Below, piece by piece: positions 1,285 through 63,998 of a stretch of DNA of 64,000 nucleotides. Position numbers and translations under genes: made by a program. Every line of letters begins with the position of its first letter. Within the stretch, counting starts at the first letter, position 1. The DNA comes from Defluviitaleaceae bacterium (GTDB lineage: Bacteria > Bacillota > Clostridia > Lachnospirales > WRAX01), in NCBI GenBank assembly GCA_009785555.1, contig WQWB01000001.1, forward strand, positions 1 to 64,000, read 5' to 3'. The notes under the pieces are model-generated. The model had not been told where the DNA came from. It worked only from the letters and a program-made list of their open reading frames with translations, and ran no database searches.

Positions 1285-1334
1285 TTGGCAATATTCCTAT
1301 AATTAAAGAAGAAATTTGCTGAAAAAAGTTCTTG

Positions 1335-1366
1335 ACATGTATGACAAATAGTGCTAAAATTCACAT
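1335..1366 (+). promoter_or_regulatory. sigma-A type promoter (TTGACA-17-TGcTAAAAT) upstream of regulator 1
   Basis: Consensus -35 and extended -10 read directly from the sequence. Confidence 0.4.
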
Positions 1367-2662
1367 ATGTATATATTCAAGTTTGAAGATTTCCAACAAA
1401 TCCAGTATGAGAAAATAAAACAAATCAGAACAAGGCTTGAGCTTTCACAGGAAGACGTTGCCAAAAAGCTGGGGCTTTCGCTTGCAGAATATATGGATAT
1501 AGAGTGCGGCCAACAAAGAATTACACCGGAACTGTTGTCAAACTTGAAAACCGCTTTAAACCTGCACAGAGTACCTATAACGTCGGATGAAATTGCGGAG
1601 TTTGAAGCATCCCTATGGAACTGGCGGGACATGATAAACGGCTGGCTGGTAGACTCCGCCATCGAGGCGCAGCCCTATCTTGAGCATAGCGCGTACCTCT
1701 CCTGCGATCCGGATCTATTTGATATTTATACATTGATTAGCGTCGGATTTTACCGCTTGGTAAGAAACGAGAAAGCGGCCAGCGCGGCGATGCTGACTTT
1801 AGAAAATAATTTGTTTCGGCTTTCCCGCGCAAACGAAATACGCTTCCTCGTAATGCGGGGAACGGGTGCTATCAGTAAATATGACCACAGATCAGCCTAT
1901 TCGGATTTAATAGAAGCATATAAGCTAGATGAGGGATATAATATTGCCAATTATGGGTTATACCACCATCTCGCAATCTGCTTCACAAAATTTGGCTTTG
2001 CTTATATGGCTATAAACTTTATCATGAAAGCCCGCGAAAAGGCAAAGAATGATAAAAATTACGAAACATTGCTACATCATACAAATATTCTACTCGCAAC
2101 TAATTATGCGTCCATCGGGATGTTTAATGAATCTTTGGATATTATAAATACTTGTTCAACTTTTGAAAAGGCAAATTATATACACCAACCAACGATGATA
2201 TATATCCATTACGCACAAGCACATATTTTCTATGGGATGCATAAATACGATTTAGCGTTAAAATATTGCAATAGTGCCATTGAAAGAATGGCACATAAAG
2301 ATACGAATTATCTCACCTTTTTATTTTTAAAAACTAAGATATGTTCGATGCAAGGCAATTTAGCTGAATTTTTGATTAGTTTGAACGAGGGGCTTATTTC
2401 GTCGCAAAACAATTCAATATTTAGCATTAAATTTAATGCAATAAAGCATTTTGCTACCCTCCACGAGTACCAATCATTAGACTATATAGCAGAAGTAGCA
2501 ATACCGAATATGCTTTACGAAATGCGTTATGATTTCGCCATCGAATGTTTTGACAGGCTAAGTGAACATTACACAAGAACTAAACAATATGAATTATCAA
2601 ATAAATATGCGTTACTGGCAAGGCAATATACACAAAAATTATTTATGGGGGATTTATCATGA
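1367..2662 (+). CDS. XRE-family HTH + TPR transcriptional regulator (RNPP/NprR-like), paralog 1
   Basis: N-terminal HTH (LSQEDVAKKLGLS), long AT-rich TPR-like C-terminal region, ESLWNWR motif shared with the paralog at 21841. The stop codon overlaps the start of a small peptide gene. Confidence 0.7.
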   Translation: MYIFKFEDFQQIQYEKIKQIRTRLELSQEDVAKKLGLSLAEYMDIECGQQRITPELLSNLKTALNLHRVPITSDEIAEFEASLWNWRDMINGWLVDSAIEAQPYLEHSAYLSCDPDLFDIYTLISVGFYRLVRNEKAASAAMLTLENNLFRLSRANEIRFLVMRGTGAISKYDHRSAYSDLIEAYKLDEGYNIANYGLYHHLAICFTKFGFAYMAINFIMKAREKAKNDKNYETLLHHTNILLATNYASIGMFNESLDIINTCSTFEKANYIHQPTMIYIHYAQAHIFYGMHKYDLALKYCNSAIERMAHKDTNYLTFLFLKTKICSMQGNLAEFLISLNEGLISSQNNSIFSIKFNAIKHFATLHEYQSLDYIAEVAIPNMLYEMRYDFAIECFDRLSEHYTRTKQYELSNKYALLARQYTQKLFMGDLS

Positions 2663-2820
2663 AAAAAGTAATTAAATCGTTAATGCTTGTGGTCTTTTCG
2701 TTAATTTTAATCGTGGGTATAAGCGTTCCGTTGGCAGCGGATCCTCTCGATCCACCGCTTACACCATGTCCGATATGCAACCCGGACGGCAGATCAATTA
2801 TAGAATGTGAATACTGCTAG
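2659..2820 (+). CDS. small secreted Cys-rich propeptide (53 aa), translationally coupled to regulator 1
   Basis: ATGA start/stop overlap. Reads MKKVIKSLMLVVFSLILIVGISVPLAA|DPLDPPLTPCPICNPDGRSIIECEYC: a signal peptide then a Pro/Cys-rich mature region. Its core is conserved with the peptides at 23100 and 23405. Confidence 0.6.
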   Translation: MKKVIKSLMLVVFSLILIVGISVPLAADPLDPPLTPCPICNPDGRSIIECEYC

Positions 2821-2847: not shown

Positions 2848-2883
2848 AGCCAAGCCCTTAGTTTTATATGGGCTTGGCTTTTT
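2848..2883. terminator. rho-independent terminator (bidirectional)
   Basis: AGCCAAGCCC...GGGCTTGGCT stem followed by a T-run. It lies between convergent genes. Confidence 0.5.
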
Positions 2884-2905
2884 GCTGAAGATCGCCGCTC
2901 CTACT

Positions 2906-15388: not shown

Positions 15389-16339
15389 CTACCTAGGGGT
15401 TACCCGCTCCACGCTATATCCGTCTTGTATCAGTAGATTGACGATACCCATCTCGCCTATCAGGTTTGCCGCATTAATAACAAAAAATACGTTCCGCTTA
15501 TCGGCGAGAACGGCACGCGCGGCGGCGGCCATAATACGGTTGGGACCGAAGATCAGCGTCTCACTCGCTTCACGAAACAATTCTTCGTCAGCCCCGTCGG
15601 GCGCGTACATTATCGTATATAATATCTCCTCATAATCACCTCGGATAATCATCTCAAAAAGATAGATCATGCTGTTGACATATGCCTCCGTATCCAACCG
15701 TTCCTCAAGAAGCAGCAACTGCAGCTCGGCAGATATACTATACGTACTCCTAAATAAGTCAAGGATCGTTTGCGTACCGATAATCGTCATATACGCTTCC
15801 AACGCTAAGTTAAGGAAATGAGTTTCGACCATATACTCTGCGTAAAACCCGGCTAAGTAAGCGTTAATATTGCCAAATACCGAAAACCACATAGGGAAGG
15901 TGAACGCCGGCGAAGTAACGAAGTCCGGGCCAAAAATACCCCGCATTGCACTCATGTAAAACGGATCAAGTACGCGGTCGCGCACTATGTCCAAAATATC
16001 ATGACCCAAAGTGTCTGCTATTGTGGTATCGCTAATGAGCAGGTCGTTCAAGCGTTGCCGATCAATCCAACGCAGTTCCTCAAGCGGATTTGTTTCCATC
16101 AAAAGTACGTCAGAAGCGTGGAATGCGTCCATAACGATGTCCGGCAAAGGGTAGATGTCTGCTCGTCCAAGCACTGGCGAGCCGAAGAGGTATAGTATGT
16201 AGCCGTCTGGAGATGTAACCCGCCATATTAATGGGGTTACAGCGTGGTTGGCCGGTGTTCCATAATTCTGCACGGCGGTGACACAGGCTGTTAAAGACAG
16301 AAGCAAAACAGCGACAAGAATGATTGCGGTTTTACGCAT
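15389..16339 (-). CDS. lipoprotein, TraB/GumN-like (putative)
   Basis: Lipobox LSLTAC. The YILYLFGSPVLG region resembles the TraB/GumN family, but the canonical His is absent. Confidence 0.35.
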   Translation of the reverse strand: MRKTAIILVAVLLLSLTACVTAVQNYGTPANHAVTPLIWRVTSPDGYILYLFGSPVLGRADIYPLPDIVMDAFHASDVLLMETNPLEELRWIDRQRLNDLLISDTTIADTLGHDILDIVRDRVLDPFYMSAMRGIFGPDFVTSPAFTFPMWFSVFGNINAYLAGFYAEYMVETHFLNLALEAYMTIIGTQTILDLFRSTYSISAELQLLLLEERLDTEAYVNSMIYLFEMIIRGDYEEILYTIMYAPDGADEELFREASETLIFGPNRIMAAAARAVLADKRNVFFVINAANLIGEMGIVNLLIQDGYSVERVTPR

Positions 16340-21617: not shown

Positions 21618-21623
21618 GAAAAT

Positions 21624-21712
21624 GTCATTGTGAGGAAAGCTTTACTCCGAAGCAATCCAGTAAATGCCGATAAATCATCGTTTCTGGATTGCTTCTCTTC
21701 ACTCGCAATTAC
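21624..21712. repeat. GTCATTGYGAG / GAAGCAATCCAG palindromic element
   Basis: Unit + spacer + reverse-complement unit (GAAGCAATCCAG...CTGGATTGCTTC, GTCATTGTGAG...CTCGCAATTAC). Confidence 0.5.
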
Positions 21713-21748: not shown

Positions 21749-21765
21749 TGTCGAAATATGTCGAA
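21749..21765 (+). promoter_or_regulatory. tandem Spo0A boxes (TGTCGAA x2, 10 bp apart) upstream of the regulator 2 promoter
   Basis: TTGTCGAAATATGTCGAAAA, 20-35 bp upstream of the -35. Confidence 0.4.
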
Positions 21766-21784
21766 AATTGTTGAACGATTTTTG

Positions 21785-21813
21785 TTGACACTTGTAATTA
21801 TGTGTAGTATAAT
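21785..21813 (+). promoter_or_regulatory. consensus sigma-A promoter TTGACA-17-TATAAT
   Basis: Read directly from the sequence. Confidence 0.5.
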
Positions 21814-21840
21814 CGCATCATAACAAATAACAACATACGG

Positions 21841-23103
21841 ATGACAAAAGTTATGACAATTTCCTCAAAATTGAACTCAATACGAAAAAAGCTGGGCATT
21901 TCGGAATCGACAGTTGCCTTAAACTTGGGATACCATATCAACAAGTTTATAGAGCTTGAAAACGGCGAGGCTACCATTTCCAACGAGCTTTTATCTAAGT
22001 GGAAGTTGGCTCTCGGCATCCCGGAAGTGCCAATAACAGACGTCGAGGTTCAGGCCTTTGAAGAATCGTTGTGGAACTGGCGCACGCTGATAAACTCATG
22101 GCTTGTTGACCTGGCTCGCGAAGGGCTGCACAAACTCAAACGCTGCGCCGAGCTGTCCTGCGAGCCGCATCTACAGCACGTCTACACGCTGATAAGCATA
22201 GGTTATTTCAGCATCGTTGACGATAATGAAGCAGCGGATAGGGCATTACAAATCCTAGCGGTTGATTATCTTAACCTTTCAACTATCAACAAAATACGCT
22301 TCCACACCATCCGCGGCAACCGTTATGCAAATAAGCATAACTACGCTAAGGCGTTTGAAGAACTGCATGAGGCATACATATTAAATGACGGCTCCAGCAT
22401 AGCTGGGCTTGGGTTATATTATGCGTTGGCGCAATGTTTAACTGTTTTTGGCTTTTCGTATAAAGCTATAGATCTATTGACAAAAACACGTGAAATGTAT
22501 AAAGCCGCGGGGGATGAAGTTACTTTAATATATTCAAACATTCCGCTTGCCTTAAACTATTCCCGTATCGGTGAGTTTGATAAGGCTATGCAGTTACTTA
22601 ACGAATCTTTAGACCAACAACCGGTTACGTCTTTATACCCCTCCATTTATTATGGTTATGCTAATCTATATAAAGCGATGGGTGATTATGATAAAGCGTT
22701 GGAGTTTTGTGAAAAAACTATAGAAAGCATTGATCTTAATAGCGAAATATATTTAAACGCTTTATATTTAAAAGCAGAAATTTTTACACTCCAAAATAAT
22801 ACAAAACCTCTATTAGAATGTATAGAAGAAGGACTAACCGCTTCCATCAATAATTACAGATCCTTGATAAGTTTCAACACAATAAAGCATATGAGAAATT
22901 TAAATAATGAAGAATCATTAAGTTACATAATAAATACATCAATTCCTTTTTTCGAGGAAGAGAAATATTATCGCACAGTTATAGAATATAATTTAAAACT
23001 ATGTGAGTATTTTGAAAAATGCGGTAACCATTCAATGGCTTTAAACCATCTAAAACAATCAATGAATTATGAACAAAAACTTTCAAAGGGTGATATTTCG
23101 TGA
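21841..23103 (+). CDS. XRE-family HTH + TPR transcriptional regulator (RNPP/NprR-like), paralog 2
   Basis: Homologous to 1367..2662 (HTH, ESLWNWRTLINSWLVD, TPR-like AT-rich C-terminal half). Its stop overlaps a peptide gene. Confidence 0.7.
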   Translation: MTKVMTISSKLNSIRKKLGISESTVALNLGYHINKFIELENGEATISNELLSKWKLALGIPEVPITDVEVQAFEESLWNWRTLINSWLVDLAREGLHKLKRCAELSCEPHLQHVYTLISIGYFSIVDDNEAADRALQILAVDYLNLSTINKIRFHTIRGNRYANKHNYAKAFEELHEAYILNDGSSIAGLGLYYALAQCLTVFGFSYKAIDLLTKTREMYKAAGDEVTLIYSNIPLALNYSRIGEFDKAMQLLNESLDQQPVTSLYPSIYYGYANLYKAMGDYDKALEFCEKTIESIDLNSEIYLNALYLKAEIFTLQNNTKPLLECIEEGLTASINNYRSLISFNTIKHMRNLNNEESLSYIINTSIPFFEEEKYYRTVIEYNLKLCEYFEKCGNHSMALNHLKQSMNYEQKLSKGDIS

Positions 23104-23279
23104 AAAAGGTTATTAAAATTAGTATTCCAATCTTAACAGTATTACTTTTATTTATAGCAATGACAAAGCCTATGTTTTCAGATCCAGGCCCTATCCTCCC
23201 ACCACTACCACCGTGCCCGATTTACGGTATAGACGGCAGAAGCATAGACCCATGCGAGCCGTGCGTCGAAGAAAGATAG
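23100..23279 (+). CDS. small secreted Cys-rich propeptide (59 aa, GTG start overlapping the regulator stop)
   Basis: VKKVIKISIPILTVLLLFIAMTKPMFS|DPGPILPPLPPCPIYGIDGRSIDPCEPCVEER. Confidence 0.5.
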   Translation: MKKVIKISIPILTVLLLFIAMTKPMFSDPGPILPPLPPCPIYGIDGRSIDPCEPCVEER

Positions 23280-23324
23280 CTTTCAAAAAAATAAGCCTGC
23301 CAAATAAAACGCACAACAAAAACG

Positions 23325-23353
23325 TCATTGCGAGCATCGCGAAACAATCCAGA
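23325..23353. repeat. GTCATTGCGAG...CAATCCAG unit (single arm)
   Basis: GTCATTGCGAGCATCGCGAAACAATCCAG. Confidence 0.4.
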
Positions 23354-23404
23354 AATTAAAATAATTAAAGATATATGAACAAAACCTATGGAAGGGGATT
23401 TGAC

Positions 23405-23587
23405 ATGAAAAAATTTATGAGATATATTTCTATACTTATAGTGACTATTGTTTTGTCTATTGGCTTTTCTATATCCTTAACCGCCGGAGGAGGAGATCCC
23501 GTTCTCCCACCACTACCGCCCTGCCCGATTTACGGCATAGACGGCAGAAGCATAGACCCATGCGGGCCATATACGGACGAAAAATAA
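23405..23587 (+). CDS. small secreted Cys-rich propeptide (60 aa), second copy
   Basis: MKKFMRYISILIVTIVLSIGFSISLTAGGG|DPVLPPLPPCPIYGIDGRSIDPCGPYTDEK. RBS-like AAGGGGA upstream. Confidence 0.55.
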   Translation: MKKFMRYISILIVTIVLSIGFSISLTAGGGDPVLPPLPPCPIYGIDGRSIDPCGPYTDEK

Positions 23588-23659
23588 CCGTAGGGGCGAA
23601 CTGTGTTCGCTTAAACCTATCGGTTGCACAATGCTTGACGAACACAGTTCGTCCCTACG
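23588..23659. repeat. CCGTAGGGGCG hairpin repeat (full palindrome)
   Basis: GTAGGGGCGAACTGTGTTCG...CGAACACAGTTCGTCCCTAC, 20-bp arms. Confidence 0.5.
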
Positions 23660-23758
23660 TTGGTAAGCGACTTACTCTTATCACTTACACTATGTCCAAT
23701 CTGCGACCCGTACGGTAAAAGCATAGACCCATGCGAACCGTATACGGACGAAAAATAA
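23660..23758 (+). pseudogene. remnant of a third peptide gene copy (no signal peptide): ...LCPICDPYGKSIDPCEPYTDEK
   Basis: The 3' end and the downstream CCGTAGGGGCG repeat duplicate those of the 23405 gene. Only a TTG start is available. Confidence 0.3.
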
Positions 23759-23765
23759 CCGTAAA

Positions 23766-23790
23766 CACGTAGGGGCGAACTGTGTTCGCC
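23766..23790. repeat. CCGTAGGGGCG repeat (half unit)
   Basis: ACGTAGGGGCGAACTGTGTTCGCC. Confidence 0.4.
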
Positions 23791-23935
23791 TGTATCTGCA
23801 TATACAAAAACGCTCCTCGCAATGACATTTCGTGACAAGCCGTACACCTAGAAAATAACCTTAAGCACTCCTTAAATATGAAAGCAAGCCTACGATTCAT
23901 TCCGTTGGCTTGCTTTATTTTTAATATAATATCGG

Positions 23936-24025
23936 CCACCGTAGGGGCGGTCTGTGACCGCCTTAACCCTTGAATATTTGTACACATCCTCTATCACGGG
24001 CGGTCATAGACCGCCCCTACGGTGG
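23936..24025. repeat. CCGTAGGGGCG repeat, 27-bp perfect-arm palindrome
   Basis: CCACCGTAGGGGCGGTCTGTGACCGCC...GGCGGTCATAGACCGCCCCTACGGTGG. Confidence 0.55.
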
Positions 24026-24050
24026 TATTACAACAACATCATCACTCACC

Positions 24051-29353: not shown

Positions 29354-29786
29354 TAAGCGCGCTAAGATTATTGTTGATATTTGCATGGTCATTTTCATGG
29401 TACTGTCTTTCATAAGATGGGAGGAGAGCAACTTCGCTTTCCACGCAATCGTTGGCATTGGCTGTATGTTGTTCTTCGCCACTCATGTCTTCATCCACAG
29501 AAAATGGATAAAGGCCGTCACAAAATCGTGCTTTGCAGGTAAAATAAAGAAGGCTCTGCGCGGCAAATACATAATTAACATGCTTTTGCTGTTAGTCTGG
29601 GGTGTATGTATCACGGCGGGTTTTGTCACTATCCCGCCATTTTTAAGCGATGCTGGCAGCGGCTTTTGGTCTGCCCTCCACGGCGTTACAGCACGGGTTG
29701 GGCTAGGGCTTGTTGTTATCCACATTGTTCAGCATATCCCGGTGATAAAATCGTATTTTGGGGTTAAGAAAAAAGCTCAACCGTAG
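29340..29786 (+). CDS. membrane protein (DUF4405-like, 4 TM)
   Basis: Four hydrophobic helices with conserved His residues. The stop codon TAG lies inside a CCGTAGGGGCG repeat. Confidence 0.4.
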   Translation: MAMNSKRAKIIVDICMVIFMVLSFIRWEESNFAFHAIVGIGCMLFFATHVFIHRKWIKAVTKSCFAGKIKKALRGKYIINMLLLLVWGVCITAGFVTIPPFLSDAGSGFWSALHGVTARVGLGLVVIHIVQHIPVIKSYFGVKKKAQP

Positions 29787-39705: not shown

Positions 39706-39810
39706 CGAACGCAGTTCGCCCCTACGTGTTGATATAGCCAATGGTCATTGCGAGCGCACACGAAGCAATCCAGGAACTTTGATTTTACAGCATTTTCTGG
39801 ATTGCTTCTG
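39706..39810. repeat. composite repeat: inverted CCGTAGGGGCG unit followed by a GTCATTGCGAG...GAAGCAATCCAG palindromic element
   Basis: CGAACGCAGTTCGCCCCTACG, then GTCATTGCGAGCGCACACGAAGCAATCCAG...CTGGATTGCTTC. Confidence 0.5.
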
Positions 39811-39894
39811 GGAAAGATGTCTGCGGCGCGCTAAACGCCCCTTACAATGACGGTGTAAATTACCAGCCATTTCACGGCTGTTAGGAGGATACAT

Positions 39895-48147: not shown

Positions 48148-48175
48148 TCAATGTTCACATTAATTGGAGAATAAA

Positions 48176-49579
48176 ATGACAAAAGCAAAAATAACAGCTT
48201 CCGAATTGTGGGAGCAAACCATCAATGAACTGGCGGAAACAGGTGAATTATCAGACATCGGATACAACGCTTGGTTATCAAACGTCACGCCGGTTAGTTT
48301 TGATGGAAATAATTTAGATTTACTTGCGGCTGATGAATATGTTAAGGAAACAATTGAAAACAGGTATTTAAAAAAAATAGATAAAATCACGGCCATTAAA
48401 CTTGGCCGAAAGATTATCATTAATATTGACCATCGCCGTACGGGTGCCGCAGATGTTACGGCAGATTCCGAATACGATGACGAAAACACCTCCACCCCAC
48501 CGGCAATTTCTCCACAACAGGCGCGTACAAAAAATTCTCATATAAACAACACTCTTATACGCAGATATACATTCGATACATTTGTAAAAGGCAAGCATAA
48601 TGAGCTGGCCTTCGGCGCATGCAGAGCTGTGGCAGAAAACCCGGGCGTTACTTCATACAACCCGTTATTTCTGTACGGCGGCGTCGGCCTCGGCAAAACG
48701 CATCTTATGCACGCCATCGGCAATTACGTTACCGAATTTGACAAAAACCTCAACGTCATCTACGTTACATCCGAAGATTTCGTAAACGACTTCGTAGCCG
48801 CCATCCGTGCCGACAGGCCTCAAAAATTCCGCGAAAAATACCGTGACGTAGACGTTCTAATGGTTGACGACGTGCAGTTCCTCGTCAACAAAATACTCTC
48901 ACAGGAAGAGTTTTTCAACACCTTTAACGCGCTTTTCCATACAAACAAGCAAATCGTTCTCTCAAGCGACAAGCCGCCATCCCACCTTACCACGCTTGAA
49001 GAACGCCTTACCTCACGATTCGGTTCCGGCTTGGTCGTAGATATCTCATTGCCGGATTACGAAACGCGCCTCGCGATACTTGAAAAAAAGGCGGAAAAAG
49101 AAAAAATACATATACCAAACGAAATATTGCGTCACCTTGCCGCAAATATAGATTCAAACATTCGTGTACTTGAAGGCGCGTACAACCAAATAATAGCCCG
49201 CGCAAAACTCACCAATACGGAGGTTAATATAAACCTAGCATATGAGGCTTTAAAGGATATATCAAACACGGCAGCAAAGACGGAGCTTAACATACCGCAT
49301 ATCCTTAAATTCATAGCGGATAAATACGTCTGTACGCCGGACGAATTGCGGTCTAAGAAACGCACGGCCAATCTATCCCATGCGCGGCAGGTTGCCATGT
49401 TTATTACCCGTAAAATACTTAATTGCCAACTTACATCTATCGGCAAGGAGCTTGGAGACAGAGACCACTCCACAGTTCTCCATGGTATAAACCGGATTAC
49501 AGAATTGCTTGAAACCGATAAAAAACTGCAGGCTGAGCTGGAGGTTTTGGAAGAGGAAATTAGGCATGCCGCAAAATAA
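48176..49579 (+). CDS. dnaA: chromosomal replication initiator DnaA
   Basis: AAA+ Walker A GGVGLGKTHL, C-terminal DnaA box-binding HTH. ATG at 48176 with a GGAGA RBS; the track ORF opens at TTG 48164. Confidence 0.95.
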   Translation: MTKAKITASELWEQTINELAETGELSDIGYNAWLSNVTPVSFDGNNLDLLAADEYVKETIENRYLKKIDKITAIKLGRKIIINIDHRRTGAADVTADSEYDDENTSTPPAISPQQARTKNSHINNTLIRRYTFDTFVKGKHNELAFGACRAVAENPGVTSYNPLFLYGGVGLGKTHLMHAIGNYVTEFDKNLNVIYVTSEDFVNDFVAAIRADRPQKFREKYRDVDVLMVDDVQFLVNKILSQEEFFNTFNALFHTNKQIVLSSDKPPSHLTTLEERLTSRFGSGLVVDISLPDYETRLAILEKKAEKEKIHIPNEILRHLAANIDSNIRVLEGAYNQIIARAKLTNTEVNINLAYEALKDISNTAAKTELNIPHILKFIADKYVCTPDELRSKKRTANLSHARQVAMFITRKILNCQLTSIGKELGDRDHSTVLHGINRITELLETDKKLQAELEVLEEEIRHAAK

Positions 49580-49682
49580 TATTTTATGAAAGTTGTTTTA
49601 TATATTTATAGTAAGAGTTGTACTAGGGTTTGTGGATATGTTTAAAATTTAATATATTATTGTAGTAATGGGATTATATGGT

Positions 49683-49803
49683 GTGGACAATTATAGGATA
49701 ACTTGTGAAAAGTAAGAAACTTATCCACATTATAGATGAAATATTGAAAAGGCTTATAATTATCAACATTTGATTAATGTTATCCACAATGTTTTGTTGA
49801 TAA
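49683..49803. other. oriC: oriC part 2: DnaA-box cluster between dnaA and dnaN, with an AT-rich candidate unwinding region at ~49580-49680
   Basis: TTGTCCACA (rc) at 49683, TTATCCACA at 49721 and 49780, TTATCAACA at 49761 and 49795 (rc). Confidence 0.6.
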
Positions 49804-49826
49804 GTATAAGGAGAAGGAGAATATAT

Positions 49827-50969
49827 ATGAAGCTTAGTTGTTCAAAGGATTTATTGGTGCATGGTATAGGTATCGTCGGTAAGGCTGTTACGGGGCGCAG
49901 TACGCAGCCGATACTGGAATGTATATTACTTGAAACAAACAGTGATGGTTTGGTTTTAACGGGTAACGATTTAGAACTTGGTATAGAAAGCCGCACGATC
50001 GCTGCCGACGTTGATGAAGGTGGCAAGGTTGCGCTTAATGCGCGTATATTTTCCGATATCGTAAGGAAGATGCCAGGAGACAAAGTTGAGATAGAATGCA
50101 TGGGTAATTTCGTTACGATGTTGCGTGGGGGAGGTGCGGAGTTCCGTATACTTGGAAGCGATGGCGATGAATTCCCCGGCTTACCGGAAATGGATGGCGG
50201 TGACGTAAACGACAGGTTTGAGATAACTGCCGCCGAAATATCTGGCATGATAAAGCAGGTTCTTTTTTCTGTCTCTACAGACGAATCCAAACCAGCTCTA
50301 ACTGGCGTACTGTTTGAGTCGAAGGAAGGTAAGTTGAGGCTTGTATCGCTTGACACGCTTAGGGTTAGCGTAAGGGAGGCCGATATCGACAATAAGGAAC
50401 TAAGTGTTTACGCAATTATCCCTGGAAAGGTGCTTGGAGAGATTACCAAAGTGCTTGGCACAAGCGATAAAAACATAGTAACGATTCAATTTATGAAGAA
50501 TCTAGTATTGTTTGAGACGGATGAAGCGCGTATCATATCTAGGCTTATTGACGGTAAATTTATAGACTATGAACGGCTTTTTGCGACGGAGGCTACTACA
50601 TACCTAACCCTTCATTCCAAGTTTTTGGAAGATGGGCTTGAACGCGCATCCCTCATATCGCGAGAAGCGCGGAAAAACCCGGTCAGGCTTACTGCTGAGG
50701 AAAGAGACGGCGCGTTCGCCCTGACCGTTGAATCAAAAGCTGAGACGGGTACGTTTATAGAAGAAATCGGCCAAGAGGCTGCATTGTCGCTTGATGGGCA
50801 AGGTATAAAGATTAGCTTTAACCCTAAGTTTCTACTTGATGTACTAAAGGTTGTGAATGACGGTTCAATCTGCCTAAAATTTACGACGCCGATTAGCCCG
50901 TGTATTATTACCGGTACGGAAGATGAAAGCTATAGGTACGTGATTATGCCGCTTAGGGAGTATATGTAG
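49827..50969 (+). CDS. dnaN: DNA polymerase III beta sliding clamp
   Basis: Three-domain beta clamp, AAGGAGAAGGAGA RBS, 380 aa from ATG 49827. Confidence 0.9.
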   Translation: MKLSCSKDLLVHGIGIVGKAVTGRSTQPILECILLETNSDGLVLTGNDLELGIESRTIAADVDEGGKVALNARIFSDIVRKMPGDKVEIECMGNFVTMLRGGGAEFRILGSDGDEFPGLPEMDGGDVNDRFEITAAEISGMIKQVLFSVSTDESKPALTGVLFESKEGKLRLVSLDTLRVSVREADIDNKELSVYAIIPGKVLGEITKVLGTSDKNIVTIQFMKNLVLFETDEARIISRLIDGKFIDYERLFATEATTYLTLHSKFLEDGLERASLISREARKNPVRLTAEERDGAFALTVESKAETGTFIEEIGQEAALSLDGQGIKISFNPKFLLDVLKVVNDGSICLKFTTPISPCIITGTEDESYRYVIMPLREYM

Positions 50970-55703: not shown

Positions 55704-56609
55704 TTACTCCATATTTATACTTAGTGAAAGCTGGTGTATGCCATTTGATAAACGTTTTTTTGCGATTTCTGCGTAATTTTCGTCTATTTCAATTCCAATG
55801 TAATGCCTATTTAAATTTTTTGCGGCTAAACATGTTGTACCTGAACCGGCAAAAGGATCGATAATAATCGCACCCTCTTGTGTAACAAGTGATACAAGAC
55901 GCTCCATTAATTTTAGCGGTTTCTGTGTTTCATGTAATCCATGGTCTTCTTTATCGTAGCAAACAGAAAATATGTTTGTGTTGGCTATGCTTTCATTCCA
56001 AGCACCAACATTATGTTCAATAACATTGTCTGCAAGCGTTCCACCTGTTTTATAAGGTTTTTGAAACCATAAAATAGGTTCAAATAGTGGACGTAAATTT
56101 GCAACACGCCAACCTTCCCAATCCTCAGCTCTTGTGTTATCGCCACGTCTTTTATATATTTCTGAAATACGTTGAGCGCGGTGCGGGGCTGTTGTTTTTT
56201 CCCAAGCTAACATATCTTTAAATGTAAAACCTGCATCTTCAAGAGCTACTATACATCTATGAGCAAAACGACGACCAGCAAAAATAAAACATGAAGCACC
56301 TGGTTTTAATATTCTAAGCCAGTCAAATGCCCATGATGAACACCATTCTTGGTATTCAAAGGGTATCTTTTTATCCGCATCGCTCCATCCGTTTAAAGGT
56401 TTGCCACGGCGTTTAAATAATGTTCCGCCGTTAATTTGTGCCGTTGATGCACCGCCTAAGGCAGAGTTAGTGTTATTATGTAATATATCCCATTCATTAT
56501 AAGATATTCCATAAGGAATGTCAGAAATAATGGCATGAGCATATTCGTTGGGCAATTTTTTCATTAATTCTATAGAATCGCCGCAAATAATGTTATCTAA
56601 ATTAATCAC
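55704..56609 (-). CDS. beta-class DNA methyltransferase (N6-adenine or N4-cytosine), partner of the adjacent endonuclease
   Basis: Motif IV SDIPYG precedes motif I IIDPFAGSGTT. GTG start at 56609 with an AGGAGG RBS. Low GC. Confidence 0.8.
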   Translation of the reverse strand: MINLDNIICGDSIELMKKLPNEYAHAIISDIPYGISYNEWDILHNNTNSALGGASTAQINGGTLFKRRGKPLNGWSDADKKIPFEYQEWCSSWAFDWLRILKPGASCFIFAGRRFAHRCIVALEDAGFTFKDMLAWEKTTAPHRAQRISEIYKRRGDNTRAEDWEGWRVANLRPLFEPILWFQKPYKTGGTLADNVIEHNVGAWNESIANTNIFSVCYDKEDHGLHETQKPLKLMERLVSLVTQEGAIIIDPFAGSGTTCLAAKNLNRHYIGIEIDENYAEIAKKRLSNGIHQLSLSINME

Positions 56610-57474
56610 GGCAAATCCTCCTACTAACATAAGAATTAATTTGCCGGATTTTTTCATCTATTTTTTTATTTTTTATTAATTCGTCAATTGCTTGATCACG
56701 TGAATATGATAAAATTATTTTACGTTCATTTTCCCAATATGTCTTTTCCTTTTCGCTTCTGCTTGTTATATTTTGTGAATATGAAGTTAGTGCTTTTTCA
56801 AATTCATCGTATGTATATCCGATAAGAAAAGAAAAACATCGATCAAATATAGGAATAAAACATATTTTTCTTTGTGCAGCTGTTATTATGTGGGAATGAG
56901 TTTCACTAAAATTCCATATACGAGATAAATTAATTTTTCCATTTTCGGTTATATTATTTTTTAGTAAAAAAATCAAATGCTCCCAACTCAACAAACAAAC
57001 ATTATTATCAATAGACTGTGCAAAAATTTGACTTTGTTTAATTGGATAATGAAAATAAGGAGCGCAAAGAACTGCATAATCACTATCTTTACGCCATCCG
57101 GATAAAGCTGTAACTTTGAAATCTTTTTGGTTTTTAGCGGTTCTGCTCATACGAAATGATTTGGCATCTGCTACAAGAGTGTATCCATGTATATTTGATT
57201 TTGCAATTACGTCAGCCGAATCAGCACGTTTTGAAACAATAGTTGAGTTTAAGCCTAATTCACGAAAAGCGCGTGATAATATCGCATCAAATGATTTTGC
57301 AAATAATTTTTCTTCTGTGGAATCATGGGCAATGCTTTCCGGTATTGTGCCGATTTGTGAGATTATATCCAAAAAATTATTTGTATCTGATATAAAAAGG
57401 TTCAGCCTTTCAAAAGCACTATTAAAACCGTATTTTGCGTATTCATTAATTAAATGCACAAATTCATTAAACAT
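56602..57474 (-). CDS. type II restriction endonuclease, HindIII-like PD-(D/E)xK
   Basis: D..(15)..DAK catalytic spacing (SADVIAK...TLVADAKSF), low GC, 8-nt overlap with the methyltransferase gene. Confidence 0.55.
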   Translation of the reverse strand: MFNEFVHLINEYAKYGFNSAFERLNLFISDTNNFLDIISQIGTIPESIAHDSTEEKLFAKSFDAILSRAFRELGLNSTIVSKRADSADVIAKSNIHGYTLVADAKSFRMSRTAKNQKDFKVTALSGWRKDSDYAVLCAPYFHYPIKQSQIFAQSIDNNVCLLSWEHLIFLLKNNITENGKINLSRIWNFSETHSHIITAAQRKICFIPIFDRCFSFLIGYTYDEFEKALTSYSQNITSRSEKEKTYWENERKIILSYSRDQAIDELIKNKKIDEKIRQINSYVSRRICRD

Positions 57475-58935: not shown

Positions 58936-59406
58936 TTATATAATTTGGCTTACGTATGATTCATATAAAGAGGCAAAGATGGCGGCGGCGGACACAAACA
59001 ACACACCCACAATAATAAGATTCCATGCGGGTTTCTTACCGTTTTCTATTTTTTTCTGTTTATATTCATAGAATGATGTCGGGGCGTTTTGTGGGTTTAA
59101 AAATGGGATAAAACGCATTTTATAGAAAAACGTCTTCATAGAAAAGGCAAGCATGTCAAACGCGCCAAAAAACGTGGTTATCGTTAGTAGGCCGAAACAT
59201 AACGACAATCCGCCAACAATAAACAACCCATCGGACATAATGCGGGCTACAACGTTAAAGTCGTCCTCCCTAAATATCCCGCGGGAATTTATAATAAGAA
59301 GCACAAAAACTGCCGCAATAACGGCAGTAATCGTGCTTCCAATTATTATCTTCTTTAAAGGTGATCTTTCCTCACGCAGAAGTTTACGTTGTTTGTTCAA
59401 TCGCAT
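58936..59406 (-). CDS. DUF3899-like membrane protein
   Basis: 3 TM helices, 156 aa. Confidence 0.45.
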   Translation of the reverse strand: MRLNKQRKLLREERSPLKKIIIGSTITAVIAAVFVLLIINSRGIFREDDFNVVARIMSDGLFIVGGLSLCFGLLTITTFFGAFDMLAFSMKTFFYKMRFIPFLNPQNAPTSFYEYKQKKIENGKKPAWNLIIVGVLFVSAAAIFASLYESYVSQII

Positions 59407-60449
59407 TAGGATATAAGCGGGGTGTGCTGTTTCATGGAGATGCGGTACTGCTCAAACTCCTGAGTATTGCACATTACGAAATGCCCGGGAGTAATTTCGC
59501 GGAGTGTGGGCATTTCCTCTCTATAATCGTGTACAAGGGCGGGCACGTAGTGTATGCGCTTGCGGCTCTTCTCCGTAATCGGGTTTGGTTGCGGGATGGC
59601 GGAAAGTAAGGCGCGCGTGTACGGATGTAAGGGGTTTTCAAATAAGTCCTTCGCGGAGGCAAGCTCTACAATTTTACCGAAATACATAACTGCGATCCTG
59701 TCGCTGAAGTATTTGACTACGCTTAGGTCGTGAGCGATGAAGAGGATGGTTAGCCCCATGCGTTCCCGCAGGTCATTAAGCAGGTTTATAACCTGTGCCT
59801 GGATGGATACGTCAAGCGCGGATACGGGTTCATCGGCGATTATCATGTCTGGCTCAAGCAGTACTGCGCGTGCGATGCCGATACGTTGGCGCTGCCCGCC
59901 GGAGAACTCGTGCGGGTAGCGCTCGGCATGCTCCGGCACAAGGCCGACCATGTCCAAGGCGGCGCGCACTTTCTCCTCAACGAATTTCTTATCCTTAATG
60001 CCTCGTATGGTTAGCCCTTCCGCAATGATCTCACGCACCGTCATCCTTGGGTTAAGGCTTGCGATCGGGTCTTGGAAAATCATCTGCATCTTGCTCATTA
60101 TACCGCCATGTACAGCATCCTCTACCTCGGATTTTGCCTGTACAAGGTTGCGGGCAAGCTCAGCCGCAAGCGCGGTATTGCCGGCTTTGCGTGCGGCGGC
60201 GATCTCCCTCTTCTTTTCCCTTACGCCGACACCGATACGCTGGCCGTTAAAGATAACGTCGCCGCCTGTTATGTCGTATAGACGGATGATGGCGCGCCCG
60301 GTTGTGGTTTTGCCGCAACCGGATTCACCCACAAGGCCTAATACTTCGCCTTTGGCAACGTCAAAGCTGATATCGTCAACGGCTTTAAGGTCCATACCTT
60401 TAAGCCTAAAATAATGCTTTAAATTCTTTACTTGTAATAATGGTTCCAT
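59406..60449 (-). CDS. oppF: oligopeptide/dipeptide ABC transporter ATP-binding protein (OppF-like)
   Basis: Walker A GESGCGKTT, signature FSGGQRQR, Walker B IIADEP, C-terminal oligopeptide domain. Confidence 0.85.
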   Translation of the reverse strand: MEPLLQVKNLKHYFRLKGMDLKAVDDISFDVAKGEVLGLVGESGCGKTTTGRAIIRLYDITGGDVIFNGQRIGVGVREKKREIAAARKAGNTALAAELARNLVQAKSEVEDAVHGGIMSKMQMIFQDPIASLNPRMTVREIIAEGLTIRGIKDKKFVEEKVRAALDMVGLVPEHAERYPHEFSGGQRQRIGIARAVLLEPDMIIADEPVSALDVSIQAQVINLLNDLRERMGLTILFIAHDLSVVKYFSDRIAVMYFGKIVELASAKDLFENPLHPYTRALLSAIPQPNPITEKSRKRIHYVPALVHDYREEMPTLREITPGHFVMCNTQEFEQYRISMKQHTPLIS

Positions 60450-60467
60450 AATTTTTCTCCTCCCCCT

Positions 60468-62564
60468 CTATTTACCAGCCGCGTCAGCGTTGTTTATCCT
60501 GTTCATTCTCTCTATACGTTCAGTGAGAATGCGGGGACGCTCCACTTTTGGCGCGTTGGGATGAAGAAGCCAGGTTGCCGCTTTATGTGTTTCAGAAAGT
60601 TCAAAAAGAGGCGGCTCTTCCTCAAAGTCTATTTCTAATGCGTATTTGTTACGGATAGCAAAGGCGTCGCCCTTGGGCGGATAAATCATGTTTGGAGGCG
60701 CACCGGGTATGGATTCCAATTTTTCTTCCGTTTCAAGATCCGGCATGGATGAAAGCAGAGCCCATGTATACGGATGCTGCGGGTTGAAGAATACTTCTTC
60801 CGCCGTACCAGTCTCGACGATTTTGCCTGCATACATAACAGCAAGCCTATCCGCAACATTAGCTACGACGCCAAGGTCATGTGTGATGAAGATTACGCTT
60901 AGGCCGCGCTTTTCCTTTAAGTTGTTGATAAGATCGAGGATCTGAGCTTGGATGGTAACGTCCAAGGCCGTTGTCGGCTCATCGCATATCAGGAGATCCG
61001 GGCTTGCGGCAAGGGCGATGGCGATGACGACGCGCTGGCGCATACCGCCTGAGAACTGGAAGGGATATTGGGTGTATCTGGCACGTGCTTCCGGTATGCC
61101 AACCTCTTCCATAAGGCTTATGGCGCGGGATTTAGCAAGGCGTTTCGTAACTTTGTAGACGGTACGGCTTGCGTCTTCCCTAATCCGCTTTACTGTTTTG
61201 CGGGCAAGGTCCGCGTAATCTAGATCCGCGGTATTTTCCAGTTCGTACTGATAACTTTCACACAGGCGTGTAAGCACGGTAACGACGTTTTCACGGTATA
61301 GATCCACGTCGGCGCGTTCTGCAAACTCTTTTTTCTTGCGGCCGCGAACGTTTTTGCCTTGGATTTTCTTGGCTAAAATCAGCTTATCCAATTCGTTTTT
61401 TATACCTGTTTTAAATGTGTAAGAAATACTGTCTTTTTGAAGGTCGAGTTTGTTGATACCAGCCTCAACAGCTTGGATAAGGGTTTTGATGGTATTTTGA
61501 AGCTCGTTTAAGTCGGCGTTCGGGTTTTCAAACTGCGGAATTTTCTGCATGATGAGATCAAGCGCAATTTGCTTCTTTTCAATTGATTGTGTTTGCGATA
61601 GCTCTAGGGCAGACGCGGTTTCCTGTATAAAGCCATTCATGAAGCCGTCATCAAAGATTTTTTGTATTTCATCATTGATAGTTCCGATGTCCGAACCGGT
61701 CGGTATTGCTATGCCGGCAAAGGAGCAATAACCCATGGCGAAGAATCTTGGTTCCGGCAACTCCAAAGCGGAGGCAAGGATGGCGCGTACGGAGTTAAGT
61801 GCGGAGCGCACCGCGTCCTTACCGACTTCATCGCCCGATGCAAGGTATTGTGCCGATGCCGCCTTTAATTCCGAAACTGCAGAATCGAAGGCGGAGTTAT
61901 CCTGTATGAGGTACTCGTGCTTACAACGGCCAAGCAGGCCGATAACGTGATTTATCTCACGCACAATGGCTTTCGGCTCACCACGGATAATATCAATAAG
62001 TATGCCGTCGATAGTACTTATTTCGGCGATAACCGTGTTTTTAGCGGCCTGGTACGGTTTCTCAAGGTTTGCGCCGCGTACGGCAAATTGCTCCAGCTCT
62101 TTAACATGGGAGCTTTTATTAGCGGCAAGGGCAGAAATGCGGTTCTTTAGGTTCCTCTTCGCATTCCGCCTACTGATTTTATTGTTGAGGAACATGGCTT
62201 CTGTGAGTTGGCGGCCAATACGCACGATTGGGTTAAGGGACGAGAACGGGTCCTGGAAAATCATGGAGACCTTATTGCCCCTAAGCAATTGGAAGTCCTC
62301 TTCGGAGATTTTTGCAAGATCCATCCCATCGAAGAAAATTTCACCTGATTCGTAGATTGCGTTGCCGGACGAGATGCCCATAATTGCCTTTGCCGTAACG
62401 GATTTACCCGAACCGGATTCGCCAACGATGGCAAGCGTCTCACCACGATCAAGCGTAAAGTCTATGTTCCTAACGGCTTTAACAGTACCGTTGTTTGTGC
62501 GGAAGAGAACACGCAAGTTCTTAACTTCCAAAATACGTTCATTGTTGTTTTTATCGATTGCCAT
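60468..62564 (-). CDS. oppD: oligopeptide ABC transporter ATP-binding protein (OppD-like) with a ~330-aa insertion between the Q-loop and the signature motif
   Basis: Walker A GESGSGKS and Q-loop IFQDP, then ~330 aa of helical sequence, then FSGGMRQR, LICDEP and the H-loop. 698 aa against the ~340 typical. Confidence 0.8.
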   Translation of the reverse strand: MAIDKNNNERILEVKNLRVLFRTNNGTVKAVRNIDFTLDRGETLAIVGESGSGKSVTAKAIMGISSGNAIYESGEIFFDGMDLAKISEEDFQLLRGNKVSMIFQDPFSSLNPIVRIGRQLTEAMFLNNKISRRNAKRNLKNRISALAANKSSHVKELEQFAVRGANLEKPYQAAKNTVIAEISTIDGILIDIIRGEPKAIVREINHVIGLLGRCKHEYLIQDNSAFDSAVSELKAASAQYLASGDEVGKDAVRSALNSVRAILASALELPEPRFFAMGYCSFAGIAIPTGSDIGTINDEIQKIFDDGFMNGFIQETASALELSQTQSIEKKQIALDLIMQKIPQFENPNADLNELQNTIKTLIQAVEAGINKLDLQKDSISYTFKTGIKNELDKLILAKKIQGKNVRGRKKKEFAERADVDLYRENVVTVLTRLCESYQYELENTADLDYADLARKTVKRIREDASRTVYKVTKRLAKSRAISLMEEVGIPEARARYTQYPFQFSGGMRQRVVIAIALAASPDLLICDEPTTALDVTIQAQILDLINNLKEKRGLSVIFITHDLGVVANVADRLAVMYAGKIVETGTAEEVFFNPQHPYTWALLSSMPDLETEEKLESIPGAPPNMIYPPKGDAFAIRNKYALEIDFEEEPPLFELSETHKAATWLLHPNAPKVERPRILTERIERMNRINNADAAGK

Positions 62565-62567
62565 AAA

Positions 62568-63998
62568 TTATTCCCCCGTTCCGCGAAGTGACGGGTTAAA
62601 CGCGTCACGCAGCCCGTTACCAAATAAGTTAAATGCAATAAGCAGGAGCGACAGCATGATCGCCGGGAATATGAATACGTGAGGACCCTCCCGGAAAACT
62701 TCGGGGCCAACGGCAAGCATTGTACCCAAGGATGCTGTATACCTGTCTTGTAGGCTGATAATACCGAGGAAGTTAAGTGTTGCTTCCATTGTAATAGTGC
62801 CGGGTATAATCAGTATCATGGACGTTATAATCGTGCCGATAGCGTTGGGGAAGATGTGGCGGAACATTATGCGCGGGTCTTTTGCGCCTAATGTCCTTGC
62901 AGCCATTACGTACTCTTGGTTTTTAAAGCGGTAGAATTGTGTACGCGTAAGGGACATCATACCCATCCATCCAAAGGCGACAAATACAAAGAGAACACCG
63001 CCAAACGGGCCAATTCTATTTGTCGCTATTAAATGTATGTTGACTAGCATGAAAACAGCAATGGTTGGAATGTTTACCAAAATTTCGCGGAAACGCTCCA
63101 TGAAAAGGTCAACTTTGCCGCCGTAGTAACCGGCGATAGCACCAAGTATAGCACCAATAAGCAGGTTAAGAATAGATACGGCTGTCGCAAGCATTATACT
63201 GAGGCGGAAACCGGCGGCCATACGCGCCCAAATGTCAAATCCGTCTGGACTTGCGCCTAGGGCGAAGAACGGTTCCATACCGTGCGTCATGTAGAAGAAG
63301 TTGTAATAGTTGACACGCACCTCAAACATTGGGTTTTGTGGCGTGCCGACGCGGCGCTCAAATTGGATAACGCCTGCTGCGTTGCGTAAATAGTTATCCA
63401 CAAGACCGTAGAGCATAACTTCTTCAAGCGTCATCGGGTTGCCGTTGCGATCCAATGGGTTGCCGAAACGGTCGTGCCGCCACCATATTTGTGCATGGTC
63501 GTTTGGATCAAACCAGAATGCATGGTGGAAGAATGGGCTTTCCTGCCCAGGCCGTGTCCCGCCGTAATCGATGACGGGAAATAAAACTTGCCTTCTGTCC
63601 GGGTTTTGTATCTCGCAGTCTTCCCACGCGCGTATTTCCGCGACGCGCTCTGGCATAAGCTGCATTGAGACAAAACCTATCCGGTGGTAGGAAGATACCC
63701 TTGCGTTCCATAAACGGCGGTATATGTTTTCTATAACCCTGTTACCATATTCGTCATCAACAAATCTGATACCGGTAGCGGCATTAAATGATTCGTTGAT
63801 TCGGATTAAAGGGGACATATTGGAGTTTACGGAATTATACCAGATTGCCCCTTCGCCATCCCTTGTAGGCTCAACGAAATCCCAAACTGGCTGCCAAAAA
63901 CGGTCGGACCCGTCTTCTGGGTATACCCACCTGCCTTCGCCAAGACCCGGGCGTTCACCCCAAACGGTTTGCTGTGCGATACCTATGTAGAAGAGCAA
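62568..63998 (-). CDS. oppC: oligopeptide ABC permease (OppC-like) with a large extracytoplasmic loop. Open to 63998, 2 nt from the window edge, so the N-terminal extent is uncertain.
   Basis: C-terminal ABC TM permease domain with the EAA-like motif MAARTLGAKDPRIMFRHIFPNA. Confidence 0.75.
   Translation of the reverse strand: MLFYIGIAQQTVWGERPGLGEGRWVYPEDGSDRFWQPVWDFVEPTRDGEGAIWYNSVNSNMSPLIRINESFNAATGIRFVDDEYGNRVIENIYRRLWNARVSSYHRIGFVSMQLMPERVAEIRAWEDCEIQNPDRRQVLFPVIDYGGTRPGQESPFFHHAFWFDPNDHAQIWWRHDRFGNPLDRNGNPMTLEEVMLYGLVDNYLRNAAGVIQFERRVGTPQNPMFEVRVNYYNFFYMTHGMEPFFALGASPDGFDIWARMAAGFRLSIMLATAVSILNLLIGAILGAIAGYYGGKVDLFMERFREILVNIPTIAVFMLVNIHLIATNRIGPFGGVLFVFVAFGWMGMMSLTRTQFYRFKNQEYVMAARTLGAKDPRIMFRHIFPNAIGTIITSMILIIPGTITMEATLNFLGIISLQDRYTASLGTMLAVGPEVFREGPHVFIFPAIMLSLLLIAFNLFGNGLRDAFNPSLRGTGE

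Follow-up and report, generated by a model that had tools for sequence, protein, structure and literature searches.

The window analysed here, a 64,000-nt stretch of contig WQWB01000001.1 from an uncultured Defluviitaleaceae metagenome-assembled genome (MAG), contains two cassettes in which a gene for a receptor/regulator with a helix-turn-helix (HTH) domain and tetratricopeptide repeats (TPRs) is directly followed by genes for small propeptides (Table 1). In cassette 2, the gene for the receptor Reg2 is followed by two intact propeptide genes, P2a and P2b, and by the remains of two others, P2c and P2d; cassette 1, ~20 kb upstream, has the same receptor-to-peptide layout with the receptor Reg1 and the peptide gene P1. 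A hidden Markov model (HMM) of the receptor family found two members in the window, Reg1 and Reg2, which are 39% identical over their full length (BLASTP, E 8e-91) and have ...SLWNWR... in common, bearing out the paralogy proposed in an earlier reading of the letters alone (hereafter the sequence-only reading). The ATG at 21853 is favoured as the start of Reg2 by the public annotation and by a close homolog on a JGI metagenome contig (L017) with a good ribosome-binding site. Receptor stop and peptide start overlap by 4 bp (ATGA or GTGA) in both cassettes and in a third one elsewhere in the same MAG (L014). The GTG-start, 59-aa P2a at the Reg2 stop, P2b at 23405 and the truncated P2c at 23660 all lie where the sequence-only reading had put them; P2c lacks a signal peptide, a Shine-Dalgarno (SD) motif and an upstream ATG.

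Table 1. Features of the two cassettes (positions in the window; dG, folding energy; z, its z-score)
Feature	Position	Strand	Remarks
Cassette 1 promoter, TTGACA-17-TAAAAT with TG	1332..1360	+	11/12 matches; ends 6 nt before ATG
Reg1, paralogous HTH_3 + TPR receptor	1367..2662	+	431 aa
P1 propeptide gene	2659..2820	+	53 aa; ATGA overlaps Reg1 stop; FWC95_00015
Intrinsic terminator of cassette 1	2848..2884	+	dG -20.3, z -3.3
Three direct repeats TGTCGAA(A), 10-bp spacing	21749..21778	+	just 5' of the -35 box
Sigma-70-type promoter of the Reg2 operon, TTGACA-17-TATAAT	21785..21813	+	12/12 consensus; conserved in L017
Reg2, XRE-HTH + TPR receptor/regulator	21853..23103	+	416 aa; alternative start 21841 gives 420 aa
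P2a propeptide gene	23100..23279	+	59 aa, GTG start; GTGA overlaps Reg2 stop
Family-B left half (GTCATTGCGAG...CAATCCAG)	23320..23355	+	partial copy
Relic of receptor-gene 3' end	23356..23404	+	~50 nt, carries the SD motif for P2b
P2b propeptide gene	23405..23587	+	60 aa; annotated hypothetical protein FWC95_00130
Family-A inverted pair, 21-nt arms	23587..23660		dG -42.1, z -9.6; very stable, without U-run
P2c, 5'-truncated peptide-gene remnant	23660..23758	+	open frame of ~32 codons, C-terminal half of the peptides only
Solo family-A unit, small hairpin	23766..23795		dG -14.8
Family-B right end (CTCGCAATGAC)	23807..23830		partial copy
P2d, relic of a fourth peptide gene, last bases and stop codon	23852..23868	+	joined to the terminator
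Intrinsic terminator of the Reg2 operon	23881..23923	+	10+3 bp stem, AUUUUU; dG -19.1, z -6.0
Second family-A inverted pair, 27-nt arms	23935..24026		dG -63.6, z -10.5

Pfam matched HTH_3 in Reg1 (E 5e-7) and TPR_12 and TPR_2 in Reg2 (E 1.5e-12 and 3e-10), the TPR match of Reg1 being weak (TPR_1/TPR_12, 1.4e-4), and the PADLOC HTH_VI and NCBIfam RstR-type models matched both proteins. A profile of the paralogs matched the NprR chains 5dbk/4gpk at E ~5e-27 in one stretch covering profile positions 73-407, and RapJ, RapI and RapH more weakly than NprR. The AlphaFold2 model of Reg2 (pLDDT 88.7, pTM 0.79) consists of helices throughout, four in the HTH and 18 after it, and reproduces the NprR architecture of an HTH domain, a helical bundle and nine TPRs. 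Its top Foldseek matches in the PDB were apo NprR, the NprR-NprX complex (TM up to 0.83 on the target) and phage or Bacillus Rap-pheromone complexes. The ESLWNWR motif proved to be the local version of a linker motif found across the family, P(L/I)TxxExxxFxxxLxxW(R/K)D. An exhaustive HMMER search of 1.84 billion representatives gave 342 full-length relatives at E<1e-30, so that the receptor family, judged by these matches, is broad rather than lineage-specific; a DNA pattern of the linker motif found no loci in metagenome contigs beyond two (L016 and L017). A word-index protein search with a 38-sequence alignment gave five proteins, and a generic TPR pattern run over genome contigs matched unrelated TPR proteins only (L002-L013). 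PADLOC and PHROGs gave generic HTH matches plus one phage family of unknown function, and a defence-system or prophage reading was rejected on these matches.

The intact peptide genes encode products that start with MKK or MKN (MKKVIK in P2a, the same as in P1) and carry two or three K/R among the first seven residues, a hydrophobic stretch of ~15-20 aa with a Kyte-Doolittle (KD) value of 2.5-3.0, and A or S at position -1 before (G)(G)xDP; these features, computed by hand, were the basis for judging the Sec signal. The predicted secreted parts align as DP(I/V)LPPL(P/T)PCPI(C/Y)..(D/E)GR(S/N)(I/V)... followed by a variable tail, so the near-identical cores and diverging tails noticed at first hold up in the alignment. 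Using Nei-Gojobori counts on the six intact peptide genes (P1, P2a, P2b and the three genes P3a-c of the third cassette), we found that the proportion of synonymous differences in the core (pS) ranged from 0.33 to 0.74 across paralogs and that of nonsynonymous differences (pN) from 0 to 0.28. For P2a and P2b, pS was 0.38 and pN 0.05; for P3a and P3c, 0.33 and 0.00; and for P1 and the P3 genes, ~0.7 and 0.18. The signal region shows relaxed constraint on the amino acids, and the tail lies in between. By this measure the Pro/Cys-rich core is under purifying selection and the small open reading frames (ORFs) are coding; the sequence-only reading had argued that they are not chance ORFs, and six intact paralogous genes with pN well below pS agree with it. 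One Cys is invariant among the seven copies of the window and L014 and none is conserved family-wide; a four-Cys metal site (CPIC...CEYC in P1) was rejected as a family feature, with one Cys invariant. A search with the peptide family returned five database proteins, all from the same MAG (P1, P2b, FWC95_04520, FWC95_04525 and FWC95_04530), and this Pro/Cys-rich peptide type is, within the data searched, confined to the source organism. P2a was absent from a collection of 15 billion proteins and from the public annotation of the MAG, though it is intact and under coding constraint. A DNA pattern of the peptide core gave six matches in viral contigs, all by chance inside unrelated proteins.

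Both cassettes were compared with the five criteria of the RRNPP signature of Bernard et al. 2023 (PMC10075063), in which the reference range for adjacency is -50 to +191 bp. Reg2 (416/420 aa) and Reg1 (431 aa) fall within the receptor length of 250-500 aa (PMC10075063); TPRs are detected by HMM, weakly in Reg1, which is nevertheless 39% identical to Reg2 over the full length; the propeptides of 53, 59 and 60 aa lie within 10-100 aa; receptor and peptide genes are directly adjacent, with the 4-bp overlap; and the hand-computed features fit a Sec/SPI signal. The predicted proteins appear to carry the complete signature, the Sec signal by computed features only. Given this signature and the fold and family of the receptors, we regard both cassettes as most likely RRNPP-type (NprR-like) peptide quorum-sensing modules.

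The signals around the genes suggest how such a module may be expressed. The TGTCGAA pattern upstream of the Reg2 promoter occurs only there in the window at 0-1 mismatch, and the repeats are kept upstream of the Reg2-like gene in L017, the flanks of which have diverged; they may be an operator or activator site. From the strong sigma-70 promoter, one transcript would cover Reg2, P2a and P2b, between which no terminator-like site was found from Reg2 to P2b, and would pass the repeat hairpins and the dead peptide copies up to the terminator at 23881-23923, which has a homologous counterpart in L014. A near-consensus promoter-like site at 23400-23428 (TTGACA-17-TATATT, 11/12) was rejected as a P2b promoter, as it overlaps the P2b start codon and any transcript from it would begin within P2b; the AT-rich SD/start region has probably produced the match by chance. 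In cassette 1 the promoter ends 6 nt before the ATG, which suggests that its mRNA is leaderless or nearly so.

By homology with NprR and Rap (PMC3763537; PMC9765709), we propose the following mechanism. Translation of the peptide genes would be coupled to that of the receptor through the stop/start overlap, with the SD motif lying within the receptor's conserved C-terminal ...GD(L/I)(S/T) codons. The 53-60 aa products would leave the cell through Sec and be cleaved by signal peptidase ahead of (G)(G)xDP, giving Pro-rich peptides of ~26-33 aa that are probably trimmed further outside the cell and re-imported by an oligopeptide permease. An Opp/Dpp-type ABC transporter at 59406-63998 (a permease and two ATPases with oligo_HPY domains, one of 698 aa and unusually long) is consistent with such import capacity. 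The peptide may then bind the concave groove of the TPR superhelix and switch the activity of the N-terminal HTH on DNA, the three TGTCGAA repeats being a candidate target of autoregulation. Positions aligned to the peptide-contacting residues of NprR are highly variable among the paralogs, as would fit diversifying specificity.

The sequence-only reading had taken a peptide gene plus its hairpin as the unit duplicated in tandem, and this holds in part. The peptide-core repeat of 83 nt is present in three copies (86% and 67% identity). The ~50 nt in front of P2b align with the receptor 3' end at a score of 38 (shuffles: mean 16.9, maximum 32) and read ...MEGDLT*, the consensus C-terminus of related receptors, Reg2's own being ...KGDIS*. 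In L014, each of three intact peptide genes follows a 50-70-nt copy of the receptor's last codons that includes the G-rich SD (GGGGTGAT...) and the ATGA junction, and the array ends in an intrinsic terminator. By these alignments, the primary unit of duplication is the receptor 3' end (last ~50-70 nt) plus the peptide gene; because this unit carries its own SD, new copies would be translatable at once. The segment 23852-23916 is homologous to the end of the L014 array and its terminator (score 44; shuffle maximum 26), and we therefore take it that a fourth copy, P2d, was once present, so that two of the four peptide copies of cassette 2 (P2c and P2d) are truncated. A match between 23091-23106 and 23823-23838 was rejected as a further unit since it overlaps a family-B repeat arm (below).

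What stands of the earlier proposal is a local event. Taken together with the hairpin arm beside them, the 3' ends of P2b and P2c show ~93% identity (score 96) when an 8-nt indel is set aside; the tail of P2c resembles P2b, and the 5' part of P2c is far more diverged and its core closer to P1 (CPIC). This mosaic suggests local co-duplication or gene conversion of tail plus hairpin. The start of P2c coincides exactly with the end of the left hairpin, which therefore marks the truncation point.

The hairpin in question, family A (CCGTAGGGGCG...), is a small stem-loop, GGCG(A/G)(A/T)C-TGT-G(T/A)(T/C)CGCC, and the sequence-only reading was right that the same one, GTAGGGGCG, follows both P2b (23590) and P2c (23769), in each case 3' of the stop. 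The second inverted pair of the element sits between the operon terminator and a convergent oxidoreductase gene, further solo copies lie at 29783, 31059 and 39717 and others in L017, and all copies are intergenic. As the L014 array has no family-A hairpins, those of cassette 2 are best described, on their distribution, as a dispersed intergenic repeat that invaded the array secondarily and coincides with its decay; that distribution also suggests that family A is, or was, mobile. Like REP/MITE-type repeats, family A is short, GC-rich, strongly folding and intergenic, and is dispersed as single units or inverted pairs; it differs from them in having no Rfam match, and Rfam matched no family over the whole window. 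A second element, family B, is a nested palindrome, GTCATTGCGAG...GAAGCAATCCAG...CTGGATTGCTTC...CTCGCAATGAC, that folds at -34 kcal/mol (z -6.7) and is complete at 21620-21712 and 39743-39840, with a copy in L017 at ~7490. Its two partial copies in cassette 2 bracket the segment with P2b, the hairpin, P2c and the second hairpin, which would reflect either an insertion into one family-B element or two partial elements. At 39717-39840 a family-B element directly adjoins a family-A hairpin.

We further examined relatives of the receptor. The same MAG encodes at least five paralogs (MCL2406288, 2406311, 2407176, 2407667 and 2407945, one accession block), and the third cassette has three intact tandem peptide genes, FWC95_04520, FWC95_04525 and FWC95_04530, beside a partial receptor; the sequence-only reading had asked whether more copies exist elsewhere in the genome, and these are such copies. 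Its view of a lineage-specific family fits the expansion in this MAG and, within the data searched, the peptide type, and not the receptors with their 342 representatives. In L017 (1-440, minus strand), a fragment of a Reg2-like gene represents a mosaic sixth receptor type: residues 52-128 match Reg2 at 100% identity, the HTH part has diverged, the following segment resembles the receptors P0002 and P0003, and the genomic neighbour differs. This mosaic suggests recombination among paralogs.

Among six distant receptors (21-34% identity), five have a downstream ORF with a predicted signal peptide, namely L025, L026 and L027 (31-34%) and L001 and L016 (21-24%). The ORF overlaps the receptor stop in four of these loci and starts 9 nt after it in L016. 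The secreted parts begin DAHPPAVPIPF... in L025, DDAPPEIIPIS... in L026 and DGVRFPIIPAM... in L001, contain ...GENPPPSGF... in L016, and in L027 consist entirely of DSTPTIPIAF. Their alignment shows a common motif, xP-x-(I/L)-P-(P/I), that immediately follows the signal peptide, with one invariant and one nearly invariant Pro. In L001 (2555-2732), a frameshifted second copy of the downstream propeptide lies upstream of the distant receptor P0005, with its signal peptide in one frame and ...DGVRFLIIPA... in another; propeptide duplication and decay therefore also occur in distant members of the family. Radical-SAM peptide-maturase-like genes stand divergently beside the receptor in L025 (821-1876, minus strand) and L027 (839-1951, minus strand, with SPASM), two of the three closest non-paralogous receptors, and L027 also has a 36-aa ORF (2082-2192, minus strand), a candidate precursor, MLIVNQEQLKVSLEAAPVDAAGSNVCGASKSLESVM. 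These two loci may be clusters for ribosomally synthesised and post-translationally modified peptides (RiPPs) that are regulated by a quorum-sensing system; no comparable radical-SAM genes lie beside the window cassettes.

The presence of such maturase-like genes in two relatives speaks for an alternative that we consider improbable, namely that the small genes encode secreted effector peptides (bacteriocin- or toxin-like, or Cys-using products of the RiPP type) and that the HTH-TPR protein only regulates them and senses nothing. The secreted part would be long (26-33 aa), is Pro/Cys-rich and conserved throughout, its tails diversify among copies, and the peptide of one relative ends CICDDTCSCDI. 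However, neither a maturase (rSAM/SPASM, LanM, YcaO and the like) nor an immunity gene or dedicated exporter flanks the window cassettes or L014, and because no maturase is adjacent the locus is not assigned to the RiPP clusters. Moreover, the peptides carry predicted Sec signal peptides rather than leader peptides, the secreted part in L027 is pheromone-sized and free of Cys, Cys conservation is limited to the one residue of the window and L014 copies, and the receptor is homologous to the peptide-binding NprR and Rap. The sequence-only reading had left the choice between a signal and a toxin; with an NprR/Rap-like receptor a signal is the best reading, and a toxin finds no support.

Somewhat less probable again is that the small products are membrane-anchored proteins, with an uncleaved anchor and a Pro-rich extracellular tail, or that the system is orphan or decaying and has no present function. 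Position -3 is M or L in some copies, and the cleavage site was judged from hand-computed features; half of the copies in the array are dead and repeats have invaded the locus. In addition, the receptor genes form AT-rich islands of 37.7% GC and ~39% GC at third codon positions (GC3) against 52-56% GC and 64-69% GC3 in neighbouring genes, with GC declining steadily along both, from ~0.48 close to the 5' end down to ~0.27 at the 3' end; foreign origin, the amino-acid composition of the TPR part and fast evolution are candidate causes. With Reg2 as the query, tblastn found no match in phages; in plasmids it hit only a regulator carried by one from Mesobacillus (24% identity) and a cyanobacterial CHAT protein that is unrelated. 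Against an anchor or a remnant stand the purifying selection on the core of the six intact genes, the intact, full-length receptors with their consensus promoters, and an arrangement that is kept at 21-34% receptor identity. The notion that the small ORFs are non-coding debris made with the hairpin repeats, prompted by the interleaving of hairpins and copies, is hardly credible beyond the fragments P2c and P2d: it is refuted for P1, P2a and P2b because core pN is well below pS, and it also conflicts with their conserved frames, start codons, SD motifs and signal-peptide properties, with the three intact genes of the hairpin-free sister array, and with hairpins that stand elsewhere free of any peptide sequence.

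Several observations nevertheless count against a quorum-sensing module of the RRNPP (NprR-like) type. In NprR, Asn275 contacts the peptide backbone and is stated to be conserved in all RNPP proteins, and a KRD motif, the Arg126 of which binds the peptide Asp and carboxylate, is strictly conserved in all NprR (PMC3763537). At the position aligned with Asn275 (hmmalign, ~16% identity, an uncertain alignment), Reg2 has Gly and Reg1 has Ala; the Asn is retained in P0003, P0014, P0015 and P0005, and Reg2 has an Asn three residues further on in the same helix. The triplet aligned with KRD is VDD in Reg2, VRN in Reg1 and of the GD type in most relatives, so that the motif is not kept in Reg2 and Reg1 retains the Arg alone. 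Conservation in the peptides is highest in the long Pro/Cys-rich core next to the signal peptide and not in a short C-terminal tail; cassettes 2 and 3 have an identical core though their receptors are only ~49% identical, which is awkward if the core is the specific ligand; and the peptides contain Cys, which is not reported for the RRNPP pheromones of the literature compared. The downstream overlapping ORF in L015 has no signal peptide, no regulated target was identified, both cassettes stand amid unrelated housekeeping genes, and the evidence as a whole consists of sequence and models from an uncultured MAG.

Within the quorum-sensing reading, the core and the tail are both candidates for the ligand. 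In favour of the core are the motif shared across the family, the L027 peptide with its 10 residues and the pattern of pN/pS; the classical C-terminal rule and the single-position variation SY(S/F/T)EEK in cassette 3 speak for the tail. Candidate Reg2 ligands include DPVLPPLPPCPIY, IDGRSIDPCGPYTDEK, PYTDEK, PCVEER and oxidised dimers. One rather speculative proposal, to which we give a low probability, is that the ligand is the conserved Pro-rich segment after the signal peptide (DPxLPPLPPCPI...), perhaps dimerised or modified via the invariant Cys, and that the variable tails of the tandem genes adjust the choice of responding receptors among the at least five HTH-type paralogs. If true, duplicated units of receptor tail plus peptide would have built a multi-signal, cross-talking network with the first 'chatterer' arrays outside the Rap subfamily. 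As a side observation, Reg1 has Arg at the NprR-R126 position and its peptide has an acidic tail with no terminal Lys (ECEYC), and Reg2 has Asp there and its peptides end ...EER and ...DEK; these are two data points and a weak lead.

The cassettes are chromosomal and lie near oriC (48164-50969; DnaA at 48164-49579, and DnaN), and the housekeeping genes around them encode RadA-like, SipL, UvrC, HprK, MurB, WhiA and GAPDH proteins. A gene on the minus strand at 15389-16339, 5.5 kb upstream of cassette 2, encodes a member of the TraB/PrgY/GumN family (E 1.9e-28); in Enterococcus, PrgY restrains self-induction by the cell's own pheromone. A HindIII-like restriction endonuclease and an N6/N4 DNA methylase are encoded at 55704-57474.

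RRNPP quorum sensing is well studied in Bacilli and a few clostridia and far less so in uncultured gut Clostridia, for which this locus offers a clean and partly unannotated example, in a genome where the receptor family has grown to at least five paralogs. It also appears to catch evolution in progress: repeated duplication of a self-sufficient unit would have provided several slightly different signals for one receptor, and signal genes have been lost where the hairpin repeats, later arrivals, now sit. With the shared Pro motif, a receptor family that has hundreds of representatives gains a candidate pheromone motif open to testing. Our understanding of how RRNPP systems work is unchanged by these findings.

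Among known systems, NprR-NprX of the Bacillus cereus group is the closest, being the best match of Reg2 in both sequence profile and fold. Like Reg2, NprR is a receptor ~420 aa long in which an XRE HTH at the N-terminus is followed by a helical bundle and a TPR superhelix, and a small gene for a Sec-exported propeptide (export being predicted here) lies directly downstream in the same operon. The window receptors, however, are only ~16-18% identical to NprR and come from Clostridia rather than Bacilli; their peptides are unrelated to NprX, longer after the predicted cleavage and marked by the Pro/Cys-rich conserved core; several tandem propeptide genes are present in cassette 2; and no adjacent target gene equivalent to nprA is found in either cassette. 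In classical RRNPP systems the pheromone derives from the propeptide's C-terminal portion, whereas the conserved motif of the present family directly follows the signal peptide. Because KRD/Arg126 is absent in Reg2 and Asn275 in both receptors, we classify the locus as NprR-like and not as NprR.

Clostridial counterparts are known from Clostridium acetobutylicum, with eight paralogous Qsr/Qsp systems, peptides in which Pro/Trp are conserved, and an active heptapeptide that is internal (PMC7376267). These systems (QssA-H) and QssR of C. saccharoperbutylacetonicum, likened here by description, are likewise expanded HTH-TPR paralogs with a small signal-peptide ORF; as described, each has one peptide gene, no tandem array and other peptide motifs. 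Neither a Defluviitalea entry nor a PCPIC or LPPLPP peptide is present in the supplements of the RRNPP_detector paper.

More than one propeptide ORF per receptor is, by contrast, a trait of the Rap-Phr 'chatterers': two propeptide genes that differ at one position lie beside 71 Rap receptors, and multiple propeptide ORFs were found only in the Rap subfamily, their absence in other subfamilies being noted (PMC9765709). The chatterer copies differ at one or a few positions, as SY(S/F/T)EEK does in cassette 3. Rap, however, has only an N-terminal three-helix bundle in place of an HTH and acts by protein-protein interaction; because Reg1 and Reg2 carry an HTH the locus is not Rap, and it extends tandem propeptide ORFs to an HTH-bearing receptor. 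The arrays of the present family also reach three intact genes (four with relics), each unit with its relic of the receptor 3' end. Taken together, these comparisons indicate that the cassettes most likely represent a new, lineage-expanded RRNPP system with one modestly unusual trait, the tandem propeptide ORFs, rather than a new kind of system.

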